In this document: positions 5,275-24,304 of the stretch, piece by piece
Position numbering within the stretch: the first letter of the stretch is position 1
How the letters are laid out: the number at the start of each line of letters is the position of its first letter
DNA from: a virus
Virus record (IMG/VR): IMGVR_UViG_3300029911_001830
Length of the DNA: 24,304 bases
Direction: 5' to 3' (one strand)
The notes under the pieces: model-generated
Seen by the model: only the letters and a program-made list of their open reading frames with translations
Told to the model about the DNA's origin: nothing
Database searches by the model: none
Program-made: the position numbers and the translations under genes

Positions 5275-8200
5275 ATGACCAAACGGCGTTTCATCTCCCT
5301 GCTGCCCGGCTGCAACCAAACCGCCGACCTGACCGCCTTCTTCGGCGCCACGGTCGATGCCTTATTCCAGCCAGGAATTTCCGACAGTATCAATGGTTAC
5401 ATCGGTCACCAAATCAGCGGGGCCGACCCGACCACCGATTTCTATCTCGCCGAACCGGATCAGACTCGCGCGTTCTACCAGTTGGAACCCGGCATGGTGA
5501 GCCTCAATTCCACCAGCAATACGATTCGCAATGCCCTGACCTATCCGGATTTCATTTCTTATCTCGATGACACCGGGGCGATCGTCAGCAATCAGCAGCG
5601 GCTGTTCGACACCGCATTGTATAGCTGGGCGCCGCCCATCAATATCGACGCCTGGATGAACTATCGGCAATACTATTGGTTTGGCGATGGCGCCGAGGAT
5701 ATGCCGGTCCTGGCGATTAACGTTCCAATCACGTATTATACCGGCGACGGGGTTACCACGCTGTTCGCCCTGCCACCATCCATGACCTCGATCACCCTCG
5801 CGCAGGAAACCCCGACCGGTTATGTTGCGGGTGAAACAATGCCAACCACCCTCAGTCCGGATGGCAGCAGTCTGATCTTCGCAGATGCGCCTGCTCTTGG
5901 CACAGTGGTCATGGTGACGCGCATTGCCGACTTTATCGGCACCGTGACCAACATGACGAGCATCGATGTGACCGGACTCACCTCAAATGATACTACCCCC
6001 TCACGCGCGCCCAGTCCGCCGGTCACCCAGCTTAGCTCGGGGATGCTGCTGCGTATCTACGATACCTTGCATCTGACCGAAGGCTGGGGTGGTCCGGCCT
6101 GGGATACCACGCCCTGGGACGCAGCGGCCTTCGATCAGTATATCATCGATGGCGTCGGTCAGAGCATCCGGTTCACCCCGTATGGCACGCTGATCCGGGG
6201 TCTCGCGGCACAATACGTCACCATTGATCGCTCATCGCAGCAAACCAACGCATGGTCGAGCCGCAATCTGTGGGTGCATCGCGCCACCTTCCTGTGGGCC
6301 GGAGTGGATTTCGTCAGCCGTCAAGCCTTGCGCCCAATCATCGAATTCGTCCGCGATCTGGTGTTATGGCAATGCTCTGCCTCACTCTACAAACCGACCC
6401 CTCAGCAAGGCAGCACCCTCACCTTCGCGGGAACCTTGCCGGTCGCCACCACCGTCAAGGGGTTTGATGTCGAGATCGGTGTCACGAGCGAAACGTTAAC
6501 CACGCCGATTCCGGTTGTTACAGTCATCACCACAGCATCCACTGCGGTCACCCTGGCGACACCCTTGCCTGCGCTACTGGGACCGTTCGCGGCAGGCACT
6601 TCCATGACCTTCCAGCAGATTTGGTCGGAGGATGTGGCGCCATTGTTCATGCTGTATGATCTCAGCACCACCCCCGCGCCCTTGAACGATCCGGTTCGTT
6701 ATCCCAACAGCACGTTTTATGGCGATCACATTTTCGGCTACGCGCTGGGCACCGGGGCGGCCGATCCGGTCATTTTGCAACCCTTGGTGTTTGACAGCAA
6801 TGGTATCATTGTCTACGACAATGCGATCGCCACGACACAATATCTGGCCGGATCGACGCCGATCATCGGGCTTTATCGTTACGCCACGCATAGTAGCGCG
6901 GGTGATCCGCAATATTACTCGCCGTGGCACGATGCGGGCATCACCAGCCAGTCGATCGCGATCAATGGCTTTTGGGATATTCCGGTCAATTTGCAAGCCA
7001 ATCCCTTGGCGCAAGAGGTTAGCCGGGTGTCGAACAGCGATGTCCAGCAGCATTTTGCCGACTTGATCAGCCAGCAAAGCAATTTCAGCGGCACGGCCAG
7101 TGCCAGCAACAACTATCGCGACAGTCCGCGCGATCTGTCTCTCGGCACCCAGGTTCTCCAGCATCGGGCGACCCTGCTCAAGGCCATGCTGCTGGCGTCG
7201 TCCAGCCAATTCGATCTGACCCTGGCACTGCGCTACGCCGATCAGGAATATAACAGATTCCGTAACAAATTCGCCCGCAAGCTGGTTGATCTATGCAATC
7301 GTGGTGTGCTGCGAGTGGATATCGATCCTGCCAGTACTTGGGTGGCGACGACCCTGGCGGCCTTGAAGATTGGCCATACCAATGCGATGCCGTTTTGGCT
7401 CAGCACGATGGCGGGCGGCCAATGGTTCATTCCGCCCACGGCCTCGGCCCTGGGTATCCAACCGGCTGTGGTGCCTGCGCTGCTGGTCGATGCCTTGTAT
7501 AATCCGCCGATTACTTTCATCCAGGGGCATGACGGCAGTCGCACACCCGCCAATAATGACTGGCGCGATGCGATCATCCTGGCGCTGGAACAACTAATCT
7601 ACACCAATCTCGATCCTGCGTTGCAGACCGAAGCGCGGCCGGTGTTTGACATTCAGCAATGGTGTGGCGGGCATTTCTACGCCCCCGCGAACGGCTATAG
7701 CCACGCCGAGGTGAGCAGCCTGCTGGCGCCATTCTTCGAAATCTGGGCGCAGAACAACGGGCTGGATTATCGCAATGCGCTGGGCTACGATCCGAGCAAT
7801 CCTTTCACCTGGAACTATCGCGGCAGCCTCGACCTCTTTGGCTTGCCGATGGCTGGAAGCTGGCGCGCGGTCTATCACGATTATTACGGCACCGATGCGC
7901 CACATCTGCGTCCCTGGGAAATGCTGGGCTTTCAAACTCAGCCGTCCTGGTGGGTGACGCAGTATGGCGCGCCGCCTTACACCCCCAGCAATCGGGTCTG
8001 GATCGACGCCACGAACGGCTATATCGCGGGTGGCGTGCGCGCGGGCTATGATGCGGTCTATTCTCGGCCCGGTCTGCTGGCGGTCTTGCCGGTCGATGCG
8101 ACGGGCCATCTGCGCGATCCCACCCAAATCGGTCTGGTCACGGTCACTTCGGGGCTCGTCGCGCTCTCCAGCCAGCCCTGGCAAGCAGGCGATTTCGGTC

Positions 8201-11200
8201 CGGTCGAGATGCTTTGGCGGACCACCCCGTCGTTTCAATATGCCCTGGCCTGTGTCAGTTTTTTGATGAAGCCCGCCCGCTTCACCGATACCTGCTGGAC
8301 GACCCTCACGCGCGGCCTGATCGCTGATCAATGGGTCGATCTGAACACTTTGTTGCGTTCCACTGACTCAACCAATCTGCTGCATGGCGAGAGCGATGCG
8401 GCAGGCCAACCTGTGATGGTCACTGGCGTCTCGCAATGGCTCGCCGACTATCTGGTTTCGCAGGGCGGCACGAGCAGTCAATTGGGCGATGCGGTGCGCG
8501 GCTTGGATGTGCGCCTGCTGCATCAGATGGCGGGGTTCGTATCGAGCAACACGGTGCAGGCGGTGTGCGATAGTTTCGGCTTGCTACCTGCCGAGAATGT
8601 GCAGACAATTCTCTATACATCGCCACCCAACGATACCGAGGTCTATAGCGGCGTGATCGTCGAGTGGACGGGCGCCGGGTGGCGGGTGATTGGCTATGAC
8701 GGGCGCACCCCTTCCTTCACCATCATCCCGCCTGATCCGGCCTCGGTCAAAGGCGTGATCAGTCTCGCCAGCGTCGCGGAACCGAAGATCAGCCCCTGGC
8801 AAGCCAGCACGTGGTATGCGCTGAATACTTACTGCAATTCGCAGGGTTCGGTGTATCAGTGCCAACGCTCGCACACCAGCGGCCCGATCTTCGAACTGAG
8901 TTTCTGGACCCCGCGTCCCGATCTCAGTCCATTCGCGATCCCGGCGCCACGCATCGTCACCTATGCGACCGGTTTCAAGGCGCTCCAACAAGTCGCCTAT
9001 GGCACGATATTCAACACCTATCAGGCGGTCGGCGATTTTCTGCTCGGCTATGAACGTTACTTGGTATCACGGGGGTGGATTTTCAGCGGCACCGATCCGC
9101 AATCCGGCGCGATCCTGAACTGGTCGATGGCGGCATTGGAATTCCTGTCCTGGACGCAGGTCAAATGGCAGCCCGGCAACTTCATCGCCCTGTCGCCCGG
9201 ACAGCGGCAAATCCAATTCAGCACGCTCACCGGGACGATCAATAACGTGGAGGACAACAGCACGGGGTTCTTCGGGCTGTGCGATCGCGTCGGCGCCCCG
9301 ATCAGCCAAAACAACGTCCTGCTCAGCCGTCTGGATGGCGATCTGACCATCACCGCGCTGAATGCCGATATCTTCCTGGCCCGGCTCTATCTCAGCACCA
9401 TCGAACATTTGTTAGTTTTTGATAACGTAACCATCTTTGACGATGCCATCTATCTGCCGTTGTTCAATCTCCGCCAGCCGCGTCTGCAATTGATCTGCAA
9501 TCGGGCGCAGCAATGGAGCGGACGGCTGGACGCACCCGGCTTCGTCATCACCGGCAACACCTTGGCCTCTAGCTTCGAGAAAGCCGCCAATGATGTGCGC
9601 TACATGTTTGACATCGAACTGGCAGATGTGGCCGACCTGCGGGACTACGCACGTCACGTGATCGGCTATGCCGAGCGTAATTACCTGGATAACCTCCTGT
9701 TGGCCGAAGTCGAGCAGTTTGAGTTCTATCAAGGAATGATCCAGCAGAAGGGTGCCCCCGGCGTGTTCGAGAAACTGATGCGCAGCACCCGCGCATCCGG
9801 CAACAGCACGCTATCGTTCCTCGAAGAATGGGGCTTTCAGGTCGGCCAATACGGGGCTCCGGCCGATGGGTTCGTGACGTTCCAACTGGCGCAGACCGAT
9901 ACCCGTGACGATCCGCAGTTTGTCAGTTTTCAGCCGCTCGCCAATGCGCCGCTGAACTGGATCATGCTCGCGCCGGGCGATCCGCGCTGGTATGACGTGC
10001 CGCCGAACCCGAGCCAATTTTTCACCATGCAGAGCGGCTTCGTCCCTGCCGCCTTGCCGATTGCCGGGCCGGTGCGGCTAACCGATGTCGCCAATACAGT
10101 GTTCGCCTGGGCCGACGTGCCGACGGTGTTCAGCCAAGAATTGCAGGCAGGTACTGCTACCTTGCCCGCCGGAGAACGCCTCTGGGTGTATGAACGAGCC
10201 GATCTAACCTTTACGGTGCTGGAAAGCTTTAACACAGCGGCGCTCCCAAATGCGCTGCTCAGCGTGCTCGCACCCGTCATCGGCAGCACCGATCGAACCG
10301 CGACCCAGACCACGCGACTGACCCTCAGCCAACCACTCAATCTGCAACAAAGTGACATTGGTAGCTACATCGTCATTGATGCGCCCAGTCTGTCCTATCC
10401 GGACCTGCATGGTGTCGCAACCTTGATCGCCATCAACTTCGCCAATAATACCATCGATATCGATTCGGTTAGCACACAGGGCTACGTCTATCTGCCCACC
10501 GACACCGCGCCTATGGTGCGCATTCTGCGCGAAATGCGGTTTCCTGATCTGGCGACGCTGATGGTCGCGGGCTACGATTGGATGATCGGCGACCTCGCCT
10601 GGATCGACGGTTCAGCCACGATGCCCTGGACGGTGCAGCAATGGGATGGCGGCGAATGGTCTCTCGCCCGCCAGCAGCCCCTGCGCAATAATCCGACGAC
10701 GATCAGCGAGACGCTGATCTATGCAGCCGGGACGCAGATCACGGGTATGCTCATGAGCAGCAACACGCCAGTGGTGAACGCCATCGACGTGATCGATCCG
10801 GTTGCTGGCTTAATTGCAGGCCGCGCCCGCAAGGAACTCGATTATCTCACCCCGTTCGATCCGGCCCGCTATAACGCCGGAGCGACATCTGCTGCGCTCA
10901 ACCCGTGGGGGCCGAATGAACGCGGCCGGGTGTGGTGGAATATCGCCACCGTCAAGTTTATCGATCCCTCCACCGATGTCTTAGGCGCAAGTAACGATCG
11001 CGATGTGGTCGAGTTGCACTATCGCATCCAGCAATGGACCCGTGTGGCGCCACTTAGCAGCGTCGATGTGTATGAATGGATCGAAAGCCTCGTCGATCCG
11101 ACGACCTATATCGCCCAGGCCATAACCGATTCGTCCTTGGGACGGGTGTATCTCACGGACGCGCCCTCCTGGGTCGAGCGGGTGGTGTATGATCCGACCC

Positions 11201-19340: not shown

Positions 19341-19800
19341 ATGGCTATGAAAAGCAGCAGGCGCAGCCTTGGGATAATGAATCAGTCATCCTCGATCGGG
19401 ATGGCTACGAAAAGACGCATTCGCATTTAGGTGGCTACGAAAACGCCGACAGCTACAAAAATCTGCTGAGCCGTCACCCCGTTGGTATCCGGGATGCAGT
19501 CATTCCTGTTCGAATGGCTACGAAAACTGGCTTGCGTAGCGGCTACACGGGCTGATGGGATGCAGCCACTCCTGTGGCTACGAAAAGGAAGGGGAGTTGC
19601 CTACGACCATTCCGGGAAGTATTTGCACGGCATGATAGCAAAGGCGCTATTACAGTCATCCATCTTGTTTGGCTGGCTACGGAAACGGAAGACCTCAAAT
19701 GGGGGACGATCGGATGCAGCCATCCGATGGATGGCTACTAAAATCATGAGAGTCCGCGCACGACGAAGCTCCAGTCACCCGGTATGGTGGATGGCTACGA
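19341..19800 (+). repeat. degenerate CRISPR-like mini-array in plus orientation, about 10 decayed units
   Basis: Units such as GGATGCAGTCATTCCTGTTCGAATGGCTACGAAAAC, GATGCAGCCACTCCTGTGGCTACGAAAAG, GATGCAGCCATCCGATGGATGGCTACTAAAAT and CAGTCACCCGGTATGGTGGATGGCTACGACAAAC match the reverse complement of the downstream CRISPR repeat (GGTGCAGTCACCCTATCGTTGGGTGGCTACGAAAAC). Spacing is irregular at 30-70 nt. Confidence 0.55.
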
Positions 19801-19841
19801 CAAACTTTAACATCTTGTGCCGCCAAAGACTAAATACTTGC

Positions 19842-20096
19842 ATGACCCTGCGAGAACTTTTGCAAATCACCGAGCGAAAACATTCATTGCACTATCACGC
19901 GCGACTCAATCCGGAGAACATGTGGTTCGACATCGTGGACATGAACGATCACGTGGTGGCGATCGATGTGTCGCCCAATCCCAAGCGGGCGCGAGAGATT
20001 GCGGCGACCTTCTATCCAGGGCAGATCATCGAGAGCGCCCGCCAGTCCCAAAGGAATCGTAGTTCTCGTAGCCATCAAGAGGATGACTGTTCATAG
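19842..20096 (+). CDS. small hypothetical protein (84 aa) between the two inverted repeat blocks
   Basis: ATG at 19842 gives MTLRELLQITERKHSLHYHARLNPENMWFDIVDMNDHVVAIDVSPNPKRAREIAATFYPGQIIESARQSQ... This is the only protein-like part of the 204-aa track ORF 19482..20096, whose 5' part is a read-through of the repeats. No clear RBS. The 3' end runs into a repeat-like TCTCGTAGCC...GGATGACTG element. Confidence 0.3.
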   Translation: MTLRELLQITERKHSLHYHARLNPENMWFDIVDMNDHVVAIDVSPNPKRAREIAATFYPGQIIESARQSQRNRSSRSHQEDDCS

Positions 20097-20125
20097 CCGG
20101 GGATCGACGCCTGGGGACGTCCGCT

Positions 20126-20340
20126 CTTTTCGTAGCCTTTTCGTAGCCGCCACAATGTGTGACTGGCGTTGACGCCAAGGCCAAGGCCGACCTAGAGCTT
20201 TTACCGTAGCCTTTTCGTAGCCGCCATCCTCAGCATAACCTTTTCGTAGCCGCCTCTGACTGACTGAATCGTAGCTATTTGTCCCTCAGCATAACCTTTT
20301 CGTAGCCATTTCGGGTGACACCTACTGTTTTCGTCGCCCT
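20126..20340. repeat. degenerate CRISPR-like repeat block in the opposite orientation to 19341-19800
   Basis: Repeated TTTTCGTAGCC(G/A)CC units include a tandem pair CTTTTCGTAGCCTTTTCGTAGCC (20125-20147) and two identical 24-mers CCTCAGCATAACCTTTTCGTAGCC at 20228-20251 and 20284-20307. It ends with GGGTGACACC...GTTTTCGTCGCCC. Confidence 0.5.
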
Positions 20341-20516: not shown

Positions 20517-21275
20517 ATGAGTATTCGCGCCTGGATGCGGCTGGTGGAGGCGATCATGTCCCCCGCAGCCCCACCGCCCGTCACCGAGACGGCCGCCTTC
20601 CAGCAGTGGTTTGCGGGCAGTAAGGTGGTCGATAAGGCGGGGAAGCCGCTCCGCTGCTATCACGGCACCCAATCGGACTTTCATACGTTTTCCAATGAGG
20701 ATGCGCCGGGGCGGGGCGGTCTGTTGGCGTTCTTTTCGGTGAAGCCGCAATTTGCCAGTTCCTATGCCTCGGACGAGCGCTCGCCTGAGGTGCGGGCGGG
20801 CGCCCAGGTGATGCCGGTCTATCTGCGCATCGTCAATCCATTCGATTACCGCAAAGATTATCACATGGCCGGGAGTTTCTATGATGAGACCGGCGGCATC
20901 CAGGATCGTTTTGAGAGCAACCGCATCCTCATGGGCCTCGGTTGGAAGATCGATAACATTGACGATGTCTCGACGCCGCTGCTGACGGAAAAGCAGTTTA
21001 CCAGGGCACTCCGCAAGGGCAGTTGGGATGCCTTGGAGGCGCCGGACTTCGTGGAGTATATCCATGATGCTGGTTATGACGGGATCGTGTTGATGGAAAA
21101 CCGCAGCCTCAACTTCGCCATCTTCGAGGCTAATCAGGTTAAGAGCGCGATTGGCAATCGGGGGACCTTCGATCCCGAGTCCGATCACATTGGTGAATCC
21201 GCACCGGCGCGCGATACCGGGTGGCGGGCGTTTCACCGTATTTCACGGCTCGGCCGCAAACACCCTGAGGTCTAG
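20517..21275 (+). CDS. hypothetical protein, possibly ADP-ribosyltransferase-fold (YHGT motif)
   Basis: 252 aa, GAGGA 13 nt upstream, ordinary composition. LRCYHGTQSDFHTF (YHGT at 20658-20669) resembles the H-G-S/T NAD-binding motif of H-Y-E-class ARTs (PARP, Tpt1/KptA). Possible Tyr and Glu follow in FASSYA and NFAIFEANQV. The opposite-strand ORF 20412..21236 is Arg-rich and antisense-like. Confidence 0.6.
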   Translation: MSIRAWMRLVEAIMSPAAPPPVTETAAFQQWFAGSKVVDKAGKPLRCYHGTQSDFHTFSNEDAPGRGGLLAFFSVKPQFASSYASDERSPEVRAGAQVMPVYLRIVNPFDYRKDYHMAGSFYDETGGIQDRFESNRILMGLGWKIDNIDDVSTPLLTEKQFTRALRKGSWDALEAPDFVEYIHDAGYDGIVLMENRSLNFAIFEANQVKSAIGNRGTFDPESDHIGESAPARDTGWRAFHRISRLGRKHPEV

Positions 21276-21526
21276 TATTTTAGGGAAAACGTGCCATTGC
21301 CGTGATCGATTAGCTGGTCGGTGCGATGCAAGGAGAACGTGCCGTCGCAATGATCCAGAAGCTGGATGTCGCCGGTTTCGAGGTAATACACCACCGAGTC
21401 GTGCGCCTGTTCGCGCGTGACGCCAGCAGGGATTTTATCGTAGTCGAGACAGCTTTCGATGATCGCATCGAGGCATTTGCGAGCGCCTTCGGGAAGTTCT
21501 TTGTACGGGACTGTAGGTTTTGTCAT
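21272..21526 (-). CDS. small hypothetical protein, convergent with the ART-like gene. Its start is uncertain (ATG 21526; alternatives ATG 21619, TTG 21655)
   Basis: Encodes MTKPTVPYKELPEGARKCLDAIIESCLDYDKIPAGVTREQAHDSVVYYLETGDIQLLDHCDGTFSLHRTDQLIDHGNGTFSLKY with an internal duplicated motif DH-x-(D/N)GTFSL. Its stop (CTA, 21272-21274) overlaps the plus-strand TAG (21273-21275) of the ART-like gene within CTAG. The opposite-strand ORF 21326..21751 looks non-coding. Confidence 0.45.
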   Translation of the reverse strand: MTKPTVPYKELPEGARKCLDAIIESCLDYDKIPAGVTREQAHDSVVYYLETGDIQLLDHCDGTFSLHRTDQLIDHGNGTFSLKY

Positions 21527-21582
21527 GCCGGTGTGGATAGCATTGCCCGACCCCTGGTGTCCAGATGGAGTATCTGTCTTGC

Positions 21583-21909
21583 TCAAGATAGTATCCGCAA
21601 TAACAGCAGGACGAACCATGTGATGCCCAAAGCTGATACGAACATGTTCAGCCAAAACGCCACCCGCATCAGCCAGTGGAATCTCTGGTTGAAACTGCGT
21701 GACGTCTCGATGATATCATGCATGAGTTCAATGCGATCGCGGATGGCGTGATCAAAGGCCATCAACACGATCAAGTGGTGCAGGTCTTGCAGCACGATCT
21801 CGATCGCAAGGGTCATGGCCAGAAACGGCGATGCGCCGCCTTGTTGCAGTTCGGCGAATAGCGCTGCAATCACGGGACGCACATCGGGTTCGGGCTGTTG
21901 CATCACCAT
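21583..21909 (-). CDS. small hypothetical protein with a hydrophobic C-terminal helix
   Basis: MVMQQPEPDVRPVIAALFAELQQGG...FWLNMFVSALGITWFVLLLLRILS. A strong GGAGGG RBS lies 9 nt upstream of the ATG (minus strand). It is the first gene of a two-gene minus-strand unit that reads toward the ART-like gene. Confidence 0.55.
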   Translation of the reverse strand: MVMQQPEPDVRPVIAALFAELQQGGASPFLAMTLAIEIVLQDLHHLIVLMAFDHAIRDRIELMHDIIETSRSFNQRFHWLMRVAFWLNMFVSALGITWFVLLLLRILS

Positions 21910-21995
21910 GGTCTACAACCCTCCAATACGAATTGGAAGCGTCGGATTTGCGCTTTTCGATCGCGTGGTTGTTGTTGGCTATATTTGCAGATGTC

Positions 21996-22029
21996 ACCTC
22001 AAGCGGCCTTGGCTGCGTCCGCTTGAGGT
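21996..22029. other. perfect inverted repeat (11-bp stem ACCTCAAGCGG/CCGCTTGAGGT, 12-nt loop)
   Basis: Read directly from the sequence. It lies between the start of the minus-strand gene at 21909 and the first degenerate repeat unit at 22046. A loosely T-rich tract (TGCGATCGTGCTGTTTGTTTT) follows on the plus strand. It is not a textbook intrinsic terminator on either strand. Confidence 0.25.
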
Positions 22030-22045
22030 TGCGATCGTGCTGTTT

Positions 22046-23768
22046 GTTTTCGTAGCCGCCCAAGGGTGACTGAAACCAGCTTGCCGGTCCTCTTGCTGTC
22101 GGTCTTGTGGTCGTATCCATTTCCATTTTCATAGCCATGCCAACGGGATGACTGCACTTCTGTGTAGTTACTCGTGAGTGACGATTCTGTTTTCGTAGCC
22201 ATCCCATGGCTCTTGAAAGGACGTCCGCAGTCGTGCCCTTGTCGTAGCCGCCGGATGGTAGGGTGAGTGAGCCGATGATGCCCGTCTGGCCGTGATGTAC
22301 GGGGTTGTCGTAGCCATCCTAGCCACCCAACGATAGGGTGACTGCGCCTCCTGCGCTCAGCCCTCGGATACATTTTTCGTAGCCACCCGAAGGGTGACTG
22401 AAACTGAGGCATTCGGGGTTCGCAAGGCTCACACGTTTTTCGTAGCCTTTTCGTAGCTTTTTGTAGCCTTCAATCCCCGCCCATTTCTGTATGTTGTCGT
22501 AGCCACTCTCTCTCATAGCCGACGAACGACATAGCGCGATCGTCGCTCTCATACAATGCATCAAATAAGCTCTCGCGCCGTGCACTCTCATTTTCGTAGC
22601 CACATGGCCGGGTGACTGAACCGCCATGCATTCGCCATGCAAGTTTTTCGTAGCCACCCAGGTATACCCCCAACGGGCGCCAGTTGAATTTTTCGTAGCC
22701 ACCGAAACATCGGGTGACTGGAACTCAGCGGCTAGCTCGCCGACCTGGGATTGATATTTTCGTAGCCACCCACTTTCCATAGCTACCCAAAAAAGGTGAC
22801 TTTAAACCCGCCCGCCACACAAGATTTTCGTAGCCACCCAAGAGTGACTGAACCCGAACCCAACTGGATCAGTGGTCTTTTAGTAGCCCACGCAAATTTT
22901 CGTAGCCGCCCGAATGCCGGACCGTACCCATGCCACCCTGTGTGTTGTTGTAGCGACCCACCAATCATCGATTTCCGTTTTCGTAGCCGTCCCGAGTGGG
23001 GTGACTGAATCTCGGAGCCACCAAGCCAGACGCAACATTCTTTTTGTAGCCGTCCGAGTGGCGGAGCGACTGAAGCCTTGGCCAGCATGTCGATCATCAG
23101 CTTCTGTTTTCTGTAGCCACTCGATGTAGACTGTCGAGGGCTGTCGGGCAAGTAGTTTTGTAACACCAAAGGTTGTAGGGTCTCCGAAACGCGTGTTTTC
23201 GTAGCCATCCAAAGGCGCTGTTCCACCTCAGGCATGGGTGTTTTCGTAGCCATCCAGCCATCCAAAGACAGGATGACTGAGCCAATCCGTCACATTTTTC
23301 GTAGCCCCTGCGAGGGCTGTCGGAGCGGTGTTTTCGTAGCCTCGAACGCAACAAGTCGTTGCCATTTCTTGTCGTAGCCGTCCAAAAGGCAGGATGACTG
23401 TGGGGGAGTGGTCTGCACGGCGAATTCAGCGATGTTTTCGTAGCCACCCAACGGCACGGCATGACCGAAGCTCCGATCGAAACTTTTTTCGTAGCCATAG
23501 GGTGACTGAATCGTCCCGAACTAAATCGGTTTTTGGAGCGGCCTACGCCGACGGCACGATCCGATGGCAGTTCTCGTAGCCTTTTTTCGTAGCTATAGGG
23601 TGACTGATCGTAGCGGCCGGGCAGCGACTCCAAAGTTTTCGTAGCCACCCAAGGCTGGGAAACCGGCTGAGCCCTTTTCTTTTTGTAGCCGCGTCCGGCG
23701 ACTGAGGCTGAATAAAAACTGCCGCTCCATCGCTGCACCAGCAGGTGTTGCGGCCTGCACAGGCTTTC
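22046..23768. repeat. extended zone of decayed CRISPR repeat units, many of a shorter variant GTTTTCGTAGCCACCCAAGGGTGACTGAAAC
   Basis: About 30 units beginning (G)TTTTCGTAGCC at irregular 45-100-nt spacing. Examples are 22046, 22374, 22590, 22690, 22825, 22976, 23488 and 23569, which end GGGTGACTGAA(A/C)C and lack the CGATA segment. Units at 22128 and 22303 are closer to the intact repeat. There are tandem partial copies at 22436-22468. A 13-mer CGAGGGCTGTCGG recurs in two different inter-repeat segments (about 23130 and 23306). Confidence 0.7.
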
Positions 23769-24304
23769 GTTTTCGTAGCCACCCAACGATAGGGTGACTG
23801 CACCCAGGATGATGGTGGCGTACTGGCCAAAGGTGTTTTCGTAGCCACCCAACGACGGGGTGACTGCACCGACCTGCTCTTGGCAGGTTATCGCAATTTT
23901 TCGTAGCCACCCAACGATAGGGTGACTGCACCCGCGCTCACCCGGATCGTCGATGGCTTTTTGTTTTCCGTAGCCACTTCCTCAATCCAGTTTTCGTAGC
24001 CACCCAACGATAGGGTGACTGCACCGAGATCGAGGTGAAGTGGTTGCCTGTCTGTTTTCGTAGCCACCCAACGATAGGGTGACTGCACCCAAAACCAATG
24101 CTGAGGATAATCCGTCCCAGTTTTCGTAGCCACCCAACGATAGGGTGACTGCACCCATCCTGTCCAGCGGCGCTTGAACGCGCCAGTTTTCGTAGCCACC
24201 CAACGATAGGAATACAACGCTCAGTTCGTCAGTTTTCGTAGCCACCCAACGATAGGGTGACTGCACCACCGGCACTCCAGGAGAACGAACAGTACTAGTT
24301 TTCG
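23769..24304. CRISPR. CRISPR array with 36-nt repeat GTTTTCGTAGCCACCCAACGATAGGGTGACTGCACC. It continues past the window end
   Basis: Repeats at 23769-23804, 23835-23870, 23897-23932 (begins TTTTTC), 23990-24025, 24054-24089, 24120-24155, 24186-24210 (truncated to 25 nt), 24232-24267 and 24298-24304 (cut by the window end). A degenerate copy lies at 23963-23989. Spacers are unique and 26-30 nt long. The reverse complement ends ...GGCTACGAAAAC, like typical repeat 3' handles. The conserved end is at high coordinates, so the leader is probably beyond 24304 and transcription probably runs on the minus strand. Confidence 0.9.

Follow-up and report, generated by a model that had tools for sequence, protein, structure and literature searches.

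The stretch of DNA analysed here (24,304 nt, IMG/VR record IMGVR_UViG_3300029911_001830, in the following called the window) is phage DNA, as indicated by a gp25 baseplate wedge protein (1454-1876) and by the 1128-aa protein encoded after it, which matches the baseplate-wedge family phrog_10646 at 1015 bits. At its right-hand end lies a CRISPR array on the minus strand, which begins at position 23769 and continues past the window edge at 24304. To the left of this array, at 22046-23768, lies a zone of repeat-like units, which an initial annotation had described as the decayed part of the array and in which it had noticed a second, shorter repeat variant of 31 nt. We present an analysis of the composition and the origin of this zone. 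The coordinates and sequences of the annotation were right: the 31-nt form is present from 22046, and the array of 36-nt repeats, which we call the live array, starts at 23769. The repeat had, however, been read on the strand that is not transcribed, and the zone, although correctly delimited, is only a part of the whole, as repeat relics span about 19.3-23.8 kb in three blocks.

Within the window, the live array comprises seven full repeats of 36 nt (GTTTTCGTAGCCACCCAACGATAGGGTGACTGCACC on the plus strand; GGTGCAGTCACCCTATCGTTGGGTGGCTACGAAAAC in the transcribed, minus sense) with spacers of about 30 nt. In addition, there is a truncated repeat at 24186-24210, a partial unit at 23964 consisting only of the repeat core, and the start of a further repeat at the window edge. 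Longer assemblies show that the array has 13 full and two truncated repeats in total and ends about 360 nt past the window. It thus has the near-identical direct repeats of 23-50 nt and the unique spacers of similar length that generally define a CRISPR array, whereas the zone at 22046-23768, in the following zone C, has heterogeneous units at an irregular spacing of 10-97 nt. The same locus was recovered from about ten peat or bog metagenome assemblies (L064, L071, L077, L115-L122), which are 99.8-99.9% identical. Spacers vary at one end: assembly L122 carries a replaced spacer to the right of a common left-hand series (one variant in about ten assemblies), and this replacement is the only polymorphism in array content among the assemblies. 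In one live spacer, the window copy differs from five other assemblies at 24268 and 24294 (ACCGGCACTCCAGGAGAACGAACAGTACTA versus TCCGG...GTTCTA), the adjacent repeats being identical. Searches with Pfam, PHROGs, NCBIfam and PADLOC found no cas genes in the window, and Pfam found none in the main open reading frames (ORFs) of the 11 kb right flank.

The relationship of the repeat was deduced from two other loci. L039 was found by scanning JGI metagenomes for two copies of the 11-nt repeat core (GGCTACGAAAA in the RNA sense, TTTTCGTAGCC on the plus strand of the window) at CRISPR-like spacing. It contains a gene for a Cas6e/type-IV-Cas6-like protein, followed on the same strand by an array with the repeat GTTCAGCCATCCCCTAAAATGGGTGGCTACGAAAAC. 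A homologue of this Cas6, 53% identical, is encoded on the 554,748-nt contig L127 in an operon with Csf2/Cas7, Csf4/DinG (163 bits), Csf3/Cas5, two unassigned proteins and Cas6, which is followed by 16 repeats on the same strand (CTCTCAGCCATTTAGAAAATAGATGGCTACGAAAAC, with the 3' end GGCTACGAAAAC). Neither cas1 nor cas2 adjoins this type IV-A operon. Homologue searches with DinG and Cas6 yielded one relative or the query alone, DinG recovering only itself, and in a tblastn comparison of the L127 Cas proteins with all collected loci the sole match was the Cas6 of L039. Read on the minus strand, the window repeat is GGTGC-AGTCACCC-TATCGTT-GGGTGGCT-ACGAAAAC; it has the 12-nt 3' end and the hairpin geometry in common with the repeat of L127. 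In the predicted minus-sense folds, all repeat variants leave exactly 8 nt unpaired 3' of the stem, which has 8 bp in the live repeat. Judging from the 12-nt 3' end, the hairpin geometry and a leader motif, the window repeat appears to belong to the type IV-A repeat family; linkage to an operon is seen in L127, and in L039 to Cas6 only. A Cas6-type cut at the 3' base of the hairpin would leave the 8-nt 5' handle ACGAAAAC. A resemblance of this handle to type III-A tags was set aside in favour of the type IV-A linkage.

The leader motif is the 10-mer TCTTTGACAA. In three independent lineages (the window phage, L113/L114 and L127) it lies upstream of the first unit, at a distance of 32-132 nt on the RNA-sense strand, and it has a single other occurrence in the 889 kb compared. 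A promoter-like site was located near it on the minus strand (L064, 1999-1971). Because this repeat family sits downstream of a type IV-A operon on the same strand, the array is read on the minus strand with the leader to the right, and the flagged zone is its trailer. The same orientation follows from the 10-mer, the promoter-like site and the spacer polymorphism of L122, which are all found on the right-hand side. A strand call from G-U wobble pairs was dropped as ambiguous, since the outer stem favours the minus strand and some inner positions the plus strand. Two side observations concern the relatives. On the minus strand of L127, a lone exact copy of GGCTACGAAAAC with a preceding A-run and no hairpin is located at 14868-14878, at a distance of 3 kb from the type IV-A array; chance would give about 0.01 copies in 18 kb. 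Moreover, both AT-rich relatives have a small conserved ORF (MSSEAA.KAW.TRR...GWVHPASR) immediately behind the array trailer (L039, 1207-1281; L127, 11839-12002).

Zone C (22046..23768, minus strand) contains 30 repeat-like units, which were defined by anchoring on the core, characterised by their edit distances and aligned with MAFFT. All 30 carry the core GGCTACGAAAA; stems, loops and tails vary. According to the initial annotation, many decayed units share the 31-nt form, and the idea was to be given up if no more than two or three did. The former statement was too strong and the latter threshold is just reached: the units at 22046-22076, 22373-22404 and 22824-22854 are one, two and three edits away from the 31-mer and the unit at 23635-23665 is four edits away, which makes three to four of 30, and the other 26 differ by at least six edits. 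The closest copy, at 22046-22076, deviates by one substitution (G for A at position 13). For the minus-strand RNA of the short form, GUUUCAGUCACCCUUGGGUGGCUACGAAAAC, a fold of -10.3 kcal/mol with a CUUG loop is predicted. More widespread than the complete form is its tail, as the class GACTGAAnC is common to eight units; the motif GACTGAA occurs seven times in zone C, once at 20240 and not at all in the live array, and the live tail GACTGCA occurs once in zone C. The distance to the 36-mer exceeds five edits in every unit, 26 of the 30 are at least six edits from either canonical form, and only one decayed unit has retained the live loop CAACGATAG. In agreement with the annotation, the zone is therefore not a product of random decay of the 36-nt repeat. 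In the RNA sense, the GACTGAAnC tail corresponds to a 5' end GTTTCAG or GGTTCAG. Since the repeats of L039 (GTTCAGCC...), L110 (GTTCAGCC and GCTTCAGTCC) and L113 (GGTTCAGTCC) have 5' ends of the GTTCAG type, the GAAnC tail is the family-typical and probably older state, and the GGTGCAG end of the live repeat is probably derived.

The assumption of an older repeat type is supported by the tail, but the order of the units is not simply old, then new. At least four stem/tail variants are intermixed in zone C without block structure by variant, and two units of the live type are located between short-form units at the far end of the zone. One of them, at 22304..22348 on the minus strand (TAGCCACCCAACGATAGGGTGACTGCGCC, with CAACGATAGGGTGACTGCGCC), is preceded by a partial duplication; the other, live-like one at 22125-22157 (minus strand) has the tail GACTGCACT. 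Because of these interspersed units, neither a simple replacement nor the clean fusion of two arrays, which had also been considered, fits the zone. A 13-mer, CGAGGGCTGTCGG, had been reported to recur in two spacer-like segments. It does recur, at 23135-23147 in the minus-strand unit 23107..23152 and at 23311-23323 in a second copy of this unit, 23295-23326, but it is part of a repeat and not of a spacer: in both units of this further variant it represents the tail and the 5' stem arm (CCGAC followed by AGCCCUCG, RNA sense) of a hairpin that closes on the core. This stem type is shared by the repeat of the mini-array of L113/L114 (CGCAC followed by AGCCCUCG). The triple partial repeats noticed at 22436..22468 are real (TTTTTCGTAGCC/TTTTCGTAGCT/TTTTTGTAGCC, minus strand, period 10-11 nt) and constitute one of four core-only tandems; a core scan located the others at 20127-20148, 20201-20222 and 23571-23594. 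Two duplicated, truncated units at 23485 and 23583 (23485..23614, minus strand, TTTTTCGTAGCC/T ATAGGGTGACTGA), which are 98 nt apart, join a live-type loop end (ATA) to an A-type tail.

If up to two mismatches are allowed, the core TTTTCGTAGCC is found 49 times on the plus strand between 20063 and 24233 and nine times on the minus strand between 19353 and 19803, 58 times in total. The remaining 19 kb of the window contain two hits, which is the level expected by chance. The decayed units number about 45 and occupy about 4.5 kb in three blocks. Block A (19343..19804) is inverted, with the RNA sense on the plus strand; its eight or nine units have a period of about 60 nt, the 5' end GGATGCAG and the stems ATCC/GGAT and ATTC/GAAT, and its unit 19743 resembles the terminal repeat of L127, the common sequence being GATGCAGCCAT...ATGGCTACTAAAA. 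Block B (20062..20340, minus strand) consists of seven to nine degenerate units oriented as in zone C, which is the third block. Three genes are located between B and C, namely an ART-PolyVal ADP-ribosyltransferase gene on the plus strand (20517-21275) and two small ORFs on the minus strand (21272-21655 and 21583-21909). Exactly at the outer boundary of zone C, the sequence shows a perfect inverted repeat of 11 bp that encloses a loop of 13 nt (21996..22030, ACCTCAAGCGG / CCGCTTGAGGT). Neither strand has a U-tract, and the element was not among the predicted canonical terminators; it could mark a boundary or serve in processing. Internal duplicates in the zone measure 13-24 nt. Recombination within the array, as proposed in the annotation, is substantiated by the core-only tandems at four places, the duplicated units, an exact duplication of 24 nt (20228 and 20284) and the inverted block.

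Matches elsewhere were sought at several levels. An Rfam scan of the window identified no family, megablast of the segment 16-24.3 kb gave no match in phage and plasmid collections, and a sensitive blastn search with the whole array and the zone against phages and plasmids gave one 30-nt match at chance level. A pattern for the 36-nt and the 31-nt forms had 0 matches in the GTDB representatives and in IMG/VR. Independent arrays with the 31-nt form, for which the annotation had suggested a search, were also absent from the two-core scan of JGI metagenomes outside the window phage's own contigs. Three leader-proximal spacers, with every sixth position masked, had 0 matches in IMG/VR. The comparison of the inter-unit segments with all collected loci, the rest of the window and the phage and plasmid collections detected internal duplications only.

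As a safeguard against ascertainment bias, zone C was scanned with all 9-mers of the 36-nt repeat. In these 1.7 kb, 9-mers from the 5' core are found about 30 times and GGGTGACTG 13 times, compared with a single copy of the loop. The cores of the decayed units have diverged by about 5% per site (26 mismatches among 539 nt); the remainder of the units is scrambled. An anchored stem of at least 6 bp is present in 27 of 54 units (including the seven full live repeats), compared with a mean of 7.1 and a maximum of 15 in 300 shuffles. If the live repeats are left out, the inner stems still contain 47 Watson-Crick pairs versus 9.3 +/- 3.4 in the shuffles. The stem sequences differ on both sides (ACCC/GGGT, ATCC/GGAT, ATTC/GAAT, GC/GC), as would be expected if the repeats had been functional at the time of their formation. 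In about half of the units, a stem closing on GGCU and followed by ACGAAAA is preserved; like the repeat mimics known as Racr, these units imitate the hairpin and handle of a repeat. Within the units, conservation is highest for the handle and the stem base, followed by the stem pairing and then by the loop and the 5' tail. No minus-strand terminator was predicted from the leader to the end of zone C and no promoter ahead of individual units. The zone occupies the leader-distal end, where trailer-end degeneration is found; a gradient of point mutations with distance from the leader is not seen.

A comparison of ten assemblies over 7.5 kb revealed seven differences, all of them non-coding; the coding sequence, about 4 kb, is free of them. 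Zone C has three (none in a core) and one live spacer two, and the spacer at 21910-22045 contains two indels. This distribution fits relaxed constraint; note that the sample is shallow, with assemblies 99.8-99.9% identical. Short clusters with a conserved core, differing hairpins, CTGAAC-type tails and core-only tandems were detected in the contigs L110, L113/L114, L074 and L042. The tandems of L113 (17-nt period, three copies) and L110 (13-14 nt) occur in independent phage contigs. The scan demanded two exact cores and was therefore biased toward such clusters. Most of its 114 loci were rejected as unrelated tandem or coding repeats that merely share the 11-mer. One group of contigs from Ga0058701, Ga0058702 and Ga0268247 (L060, L091, L035, L107, L059, L095, L047) has tandem palindromic repeats of 36-37 nt, TTTTCGTAGCCC-N13-GGGCTACGAAAA, with the 11-mer on both strands; these appear unrelated to CRISPR. 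In L113 (IMGVR_UViG_3300045771_000034, 5474-5640), two units have identical stems (AGCCCT/AGGGCT) and the reverse-complement loops ACAAACG and CGTTTGT, which points to an inversion of the loop between the stem arms at the DNA level.

The remaining part of the window encodes further phage proteins. Immediately after the baseplate genes, a single ORF of 3549 aa (5275-15924) presumably specifies a giant tail fibre or host-recognition protein. It is followed by the gene of an 840-aa protein resembling the major vault protein (16757-19279; shoulder domain PF11978, 4.7e-18). At E<=1e-10, homologues of the vault-like protein number more than 4600, of which some are found in bacterial metagenome-assembled genomes and others on contigs of 370-570 kb; a scan of a viral collection gave no match. 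Judging from the homologues on these contigs, the window phage is probably a member of a large phage lineage. Since the closest relatives as judged by the vault-like protein (74%, 71% and about 60% identity) have no repeat zone, the repeat locus is specific to this lineage. L127 also has an ART-PolyVal gene (16536-17024), about 6 kb from its type IV-A array; tblastn detected no similarity between the two ART-PolyVal genes. The location of the window gene beside repeat relics may indicate an anti-defence neighbourhood.

We lean, with confidence slightly above even, toward interpreting the zone as a rearranged halo of relics that flanks, on its trailer side, an orphan array of the type IV-A family carried by a phage. 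It would comprise earlier repeat variants, among them the 31-nt form, which duplication, indels centred on the hairpins, inversion and the insertion of genes would have reshaped. The array would be transcribed from right to left, starting from the leader beyond the window end, and a Cas6 supplied in trans would bind the 8-bp hairpin and leave the 8-nt handle. The halo to the left of the 13 homogeneous repeats would consist of about 45 leftover units in three blocks, changed not by point mutation but by local duplication, by deletions at the hairpins and, as stated, by inversion and inserted genes. The units accordingly seem to descend from once-functional repeats, and the zone now seems to be largely relic. 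Several findings weigh against this interpretation. A plain relic leaves unexplained why every unit has kept the core, with a divergence of about 5%, when 26 of the 30 are six or more edits away from either canonical form. The boundary to the live array is abrupt, as the unit at 23679, 15 edits from the 36-mer, adjoins the perfect repeat at 23769, and there is no decay gradient. No cas operon is linked to the window phage itself. In L127 and in L039, only one terminal repeat is degenerate, and it keeps the stem base and handle, so that about 45 units are extreme, and similar heterogeneous clusters exist in at least four other phage-like contigs, as listed above. Finally, no unit was gained or lost in the degenerate zone across ten assemblies despite dozens of direct repeats, which is a weak point in view of their near identity.

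Because the survival of the 11 nt of handle and stem base is not accounted for by a relic, the import of cassettes and the retention of the units as decoys or regulators have to be weighed as well. In the former case, the zone would be a mosaic from several arrays of other phages, plasmids or hosts, assembled by recombination at the 11-12-nt core with hairpin plus spacer as the cassette, which generalises the idea of an array fusion. We regard such an origin as unlikely. It would agree with the low core divergence of at least four intermixed variants, and core-to-core junctions and an inverted block are the expected traces of misaligned crossovers. There are also possible links to other contigs: the variant with the 13-mer has a stem of the type seen in the L113/L114 mini-array, these contigs and L115, a copy of the window phage, belong to the same sample series, and unit 19743 shares GATGCAGCCAT...ATGGCTACTAAAA with the L127 terminal repeat. 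However, core-only tandems aside, no window unit beats the shuffle maximum when compared with foreign units (best values 21-25; 95th percentile of the null 21, maximum 26), the inter-unit segments match neither another collected locus nor the phage and plasmid collections, and the variants do not form blocks. In the latter case, selection would keep the units: RNAs with hairpin and handle, read through from the leader, would bind Cas6/Csf proteins of type IV-A, either the phage's own or those of a competing large phage or plasmid, and serve as decoys or as regulators resembling CRISPR RNA. That conservation follows RNA function argues for this proposal, and so do the excess of inner-stem pairs and anchored stems over the shuffles, the changes on both sides of the stems, the lack of a predicted minus-strand terminator between the leader and the end of zone C, the clusters of the same grammar in L110, L113/L114, L074 and L042, and the ART-PolyVal gene inside the zone. 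Moreover, decoys of the Racr type are established, and the published pipeline dropped clustered and partial repeats. We nevertheless rate it as rather unlikely. About half of the units lack a usable hairpin, a core-only tandem cannot serve Cas6 as a substrate, polymorphisms have accumulated in the zone and not in the genes, and the closest vault-protein relatives have no repeat zone after that gene. In addition, the stem variants could have worked only when first made, and decoys beside a live array that needs the same machinery seem self-defeating. More doubtful still is a wider version, according to which phages of this peat/bog community carry clustered, deliberately heterogeneous RNAs of hairpin plus ACGAAAAC handle as a multi-variant sponge or regulator of the type IV-A Cas6/Csf of competitors; the 11-mer would be the selected element, and the variable hairpins would widen the range of Cas6 variants bound.

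Two further explanations were given very little weight. If the 36-nt repeat had simply decayed by point mutation at the trailer end, this would agree with the leader-distal position of the zone and with the degenerate terminal repeat of L127 and of L039. Yet such decay is hardly credible in view of about 30 core copies versus one copy of the live loop in 1.7 kb, and in view of the distance of more than five edits between every unit and the 36-mer; a decay that is uniform along the repeat is excluded, because the core has diverged by only about 5%, the rest is scrambled and the boundary is abrupt. An equally remote idea is that the units are not derived from CRISPR and represent iterons, protein-binding sites or a coding repeat of the minus strand. 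The 11-mer does occur alone in tandem at four places, and long minus-strand ORFs, some of which were called by gene callers, tile the zone. However, the units grade continuously into a bona fide array with spacers that vary between samples, and many of them keep the repeat hairpin and GACTG. The coding repeat in particular was rejected, as the core spacing is a multiple of three in only 12 of 31 intervals and the overlapping ORFs have no Pfam match.

Should the zone be no more than a relic, it still provides an unusually long record of CRISPR repeat change, containing compensatory stems, a replaced 5' end, hairpin indels and core-only duplications, and it bears on the growth and turnover of phage-borne arrays of the type IV-A family that lack adaptation genes of their own. 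If, on the other hand, the units are maintained, phages would deploy clustered repeat mimics, a class that current searches for solitary repeat units and Racr discard by design, and there would be a testable handle on conflicts between large phages carrying type IV-A systems. A sponge function, if true, would extend RNA anti-CRISPRs from solitary units to arrays. Either way, an orphan phage array is linked to a very divergent type IV-A system on a phage-like contig of 555 kb.

Several elements of this picture are established: plasmids and some phages carry type IV systems, these systems lack adaptation genes, and mini-arrays as well as single repeat units occur in viruses. It is also known that the terminal repeats at the leader-distal end of an array degenerate. 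The zone is alike in its leader-distal position and its repeat-derived units, but one to a few such units are usual, whereas here about 45 units extend over about 4.5 kb in three blocks without a gradient; furthermore, they vary in hairpin and tail around an 11-nt core that is nearly intact, and the zone contains inserted genes and an inverted block. In type IV-A arrays, repeats of the A1 and A3 subtypes have about 29 nt, compared with 36 nt in the window. The type IV-A systems (Csf1-3, Cas6/Csf5, DinG) of plasmids and phages have no adaptation module and interfere without a nuclease (PMC11656645; bioRxiv 10.1101/2023.06.23.546257). The window array is likewise carried on a mobile element and shares GGCTACGAAAAC and the hairpin geometry with the array of L127; it differs in having no linked cas genes within 22 kb to the left and 11 kb to the right, and the L127 effectors are very divergent. 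In the case of CreTA creA and crlRNAs, degenerate repeat-like elements keep what the effector needs and repress via partial guides (bioRxiv 10.1101/2024.12.27.630466, 10.1101/2024.01.05.574328). Repression by partial guides would suit a nuclease-free type IV-A effector, but those elements are one or two units beside a regulated gene in a cas-bearing genome, whereas no target was found for the inter-unit segments of the window. Racr are virus-encoded repeat mimics without cas genes, which can be bound and processed by Cas6 and titrate Cas proteins; a unit counts as solitary if no second repeat, full or partial, lies within 100 bp, and repeats in clusters as well as partial ones were removed (PMC10651486). 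The units of the zone resemble Racr in repeat hairpin and handle and in the absence of cas genes, but they are not solitary: tens of differing units stand 10-97 nt apart beside an array of 13 repeats. As the published pipeline removed clustered or partial repeats, clusters of this kind would have gone unnoticed.

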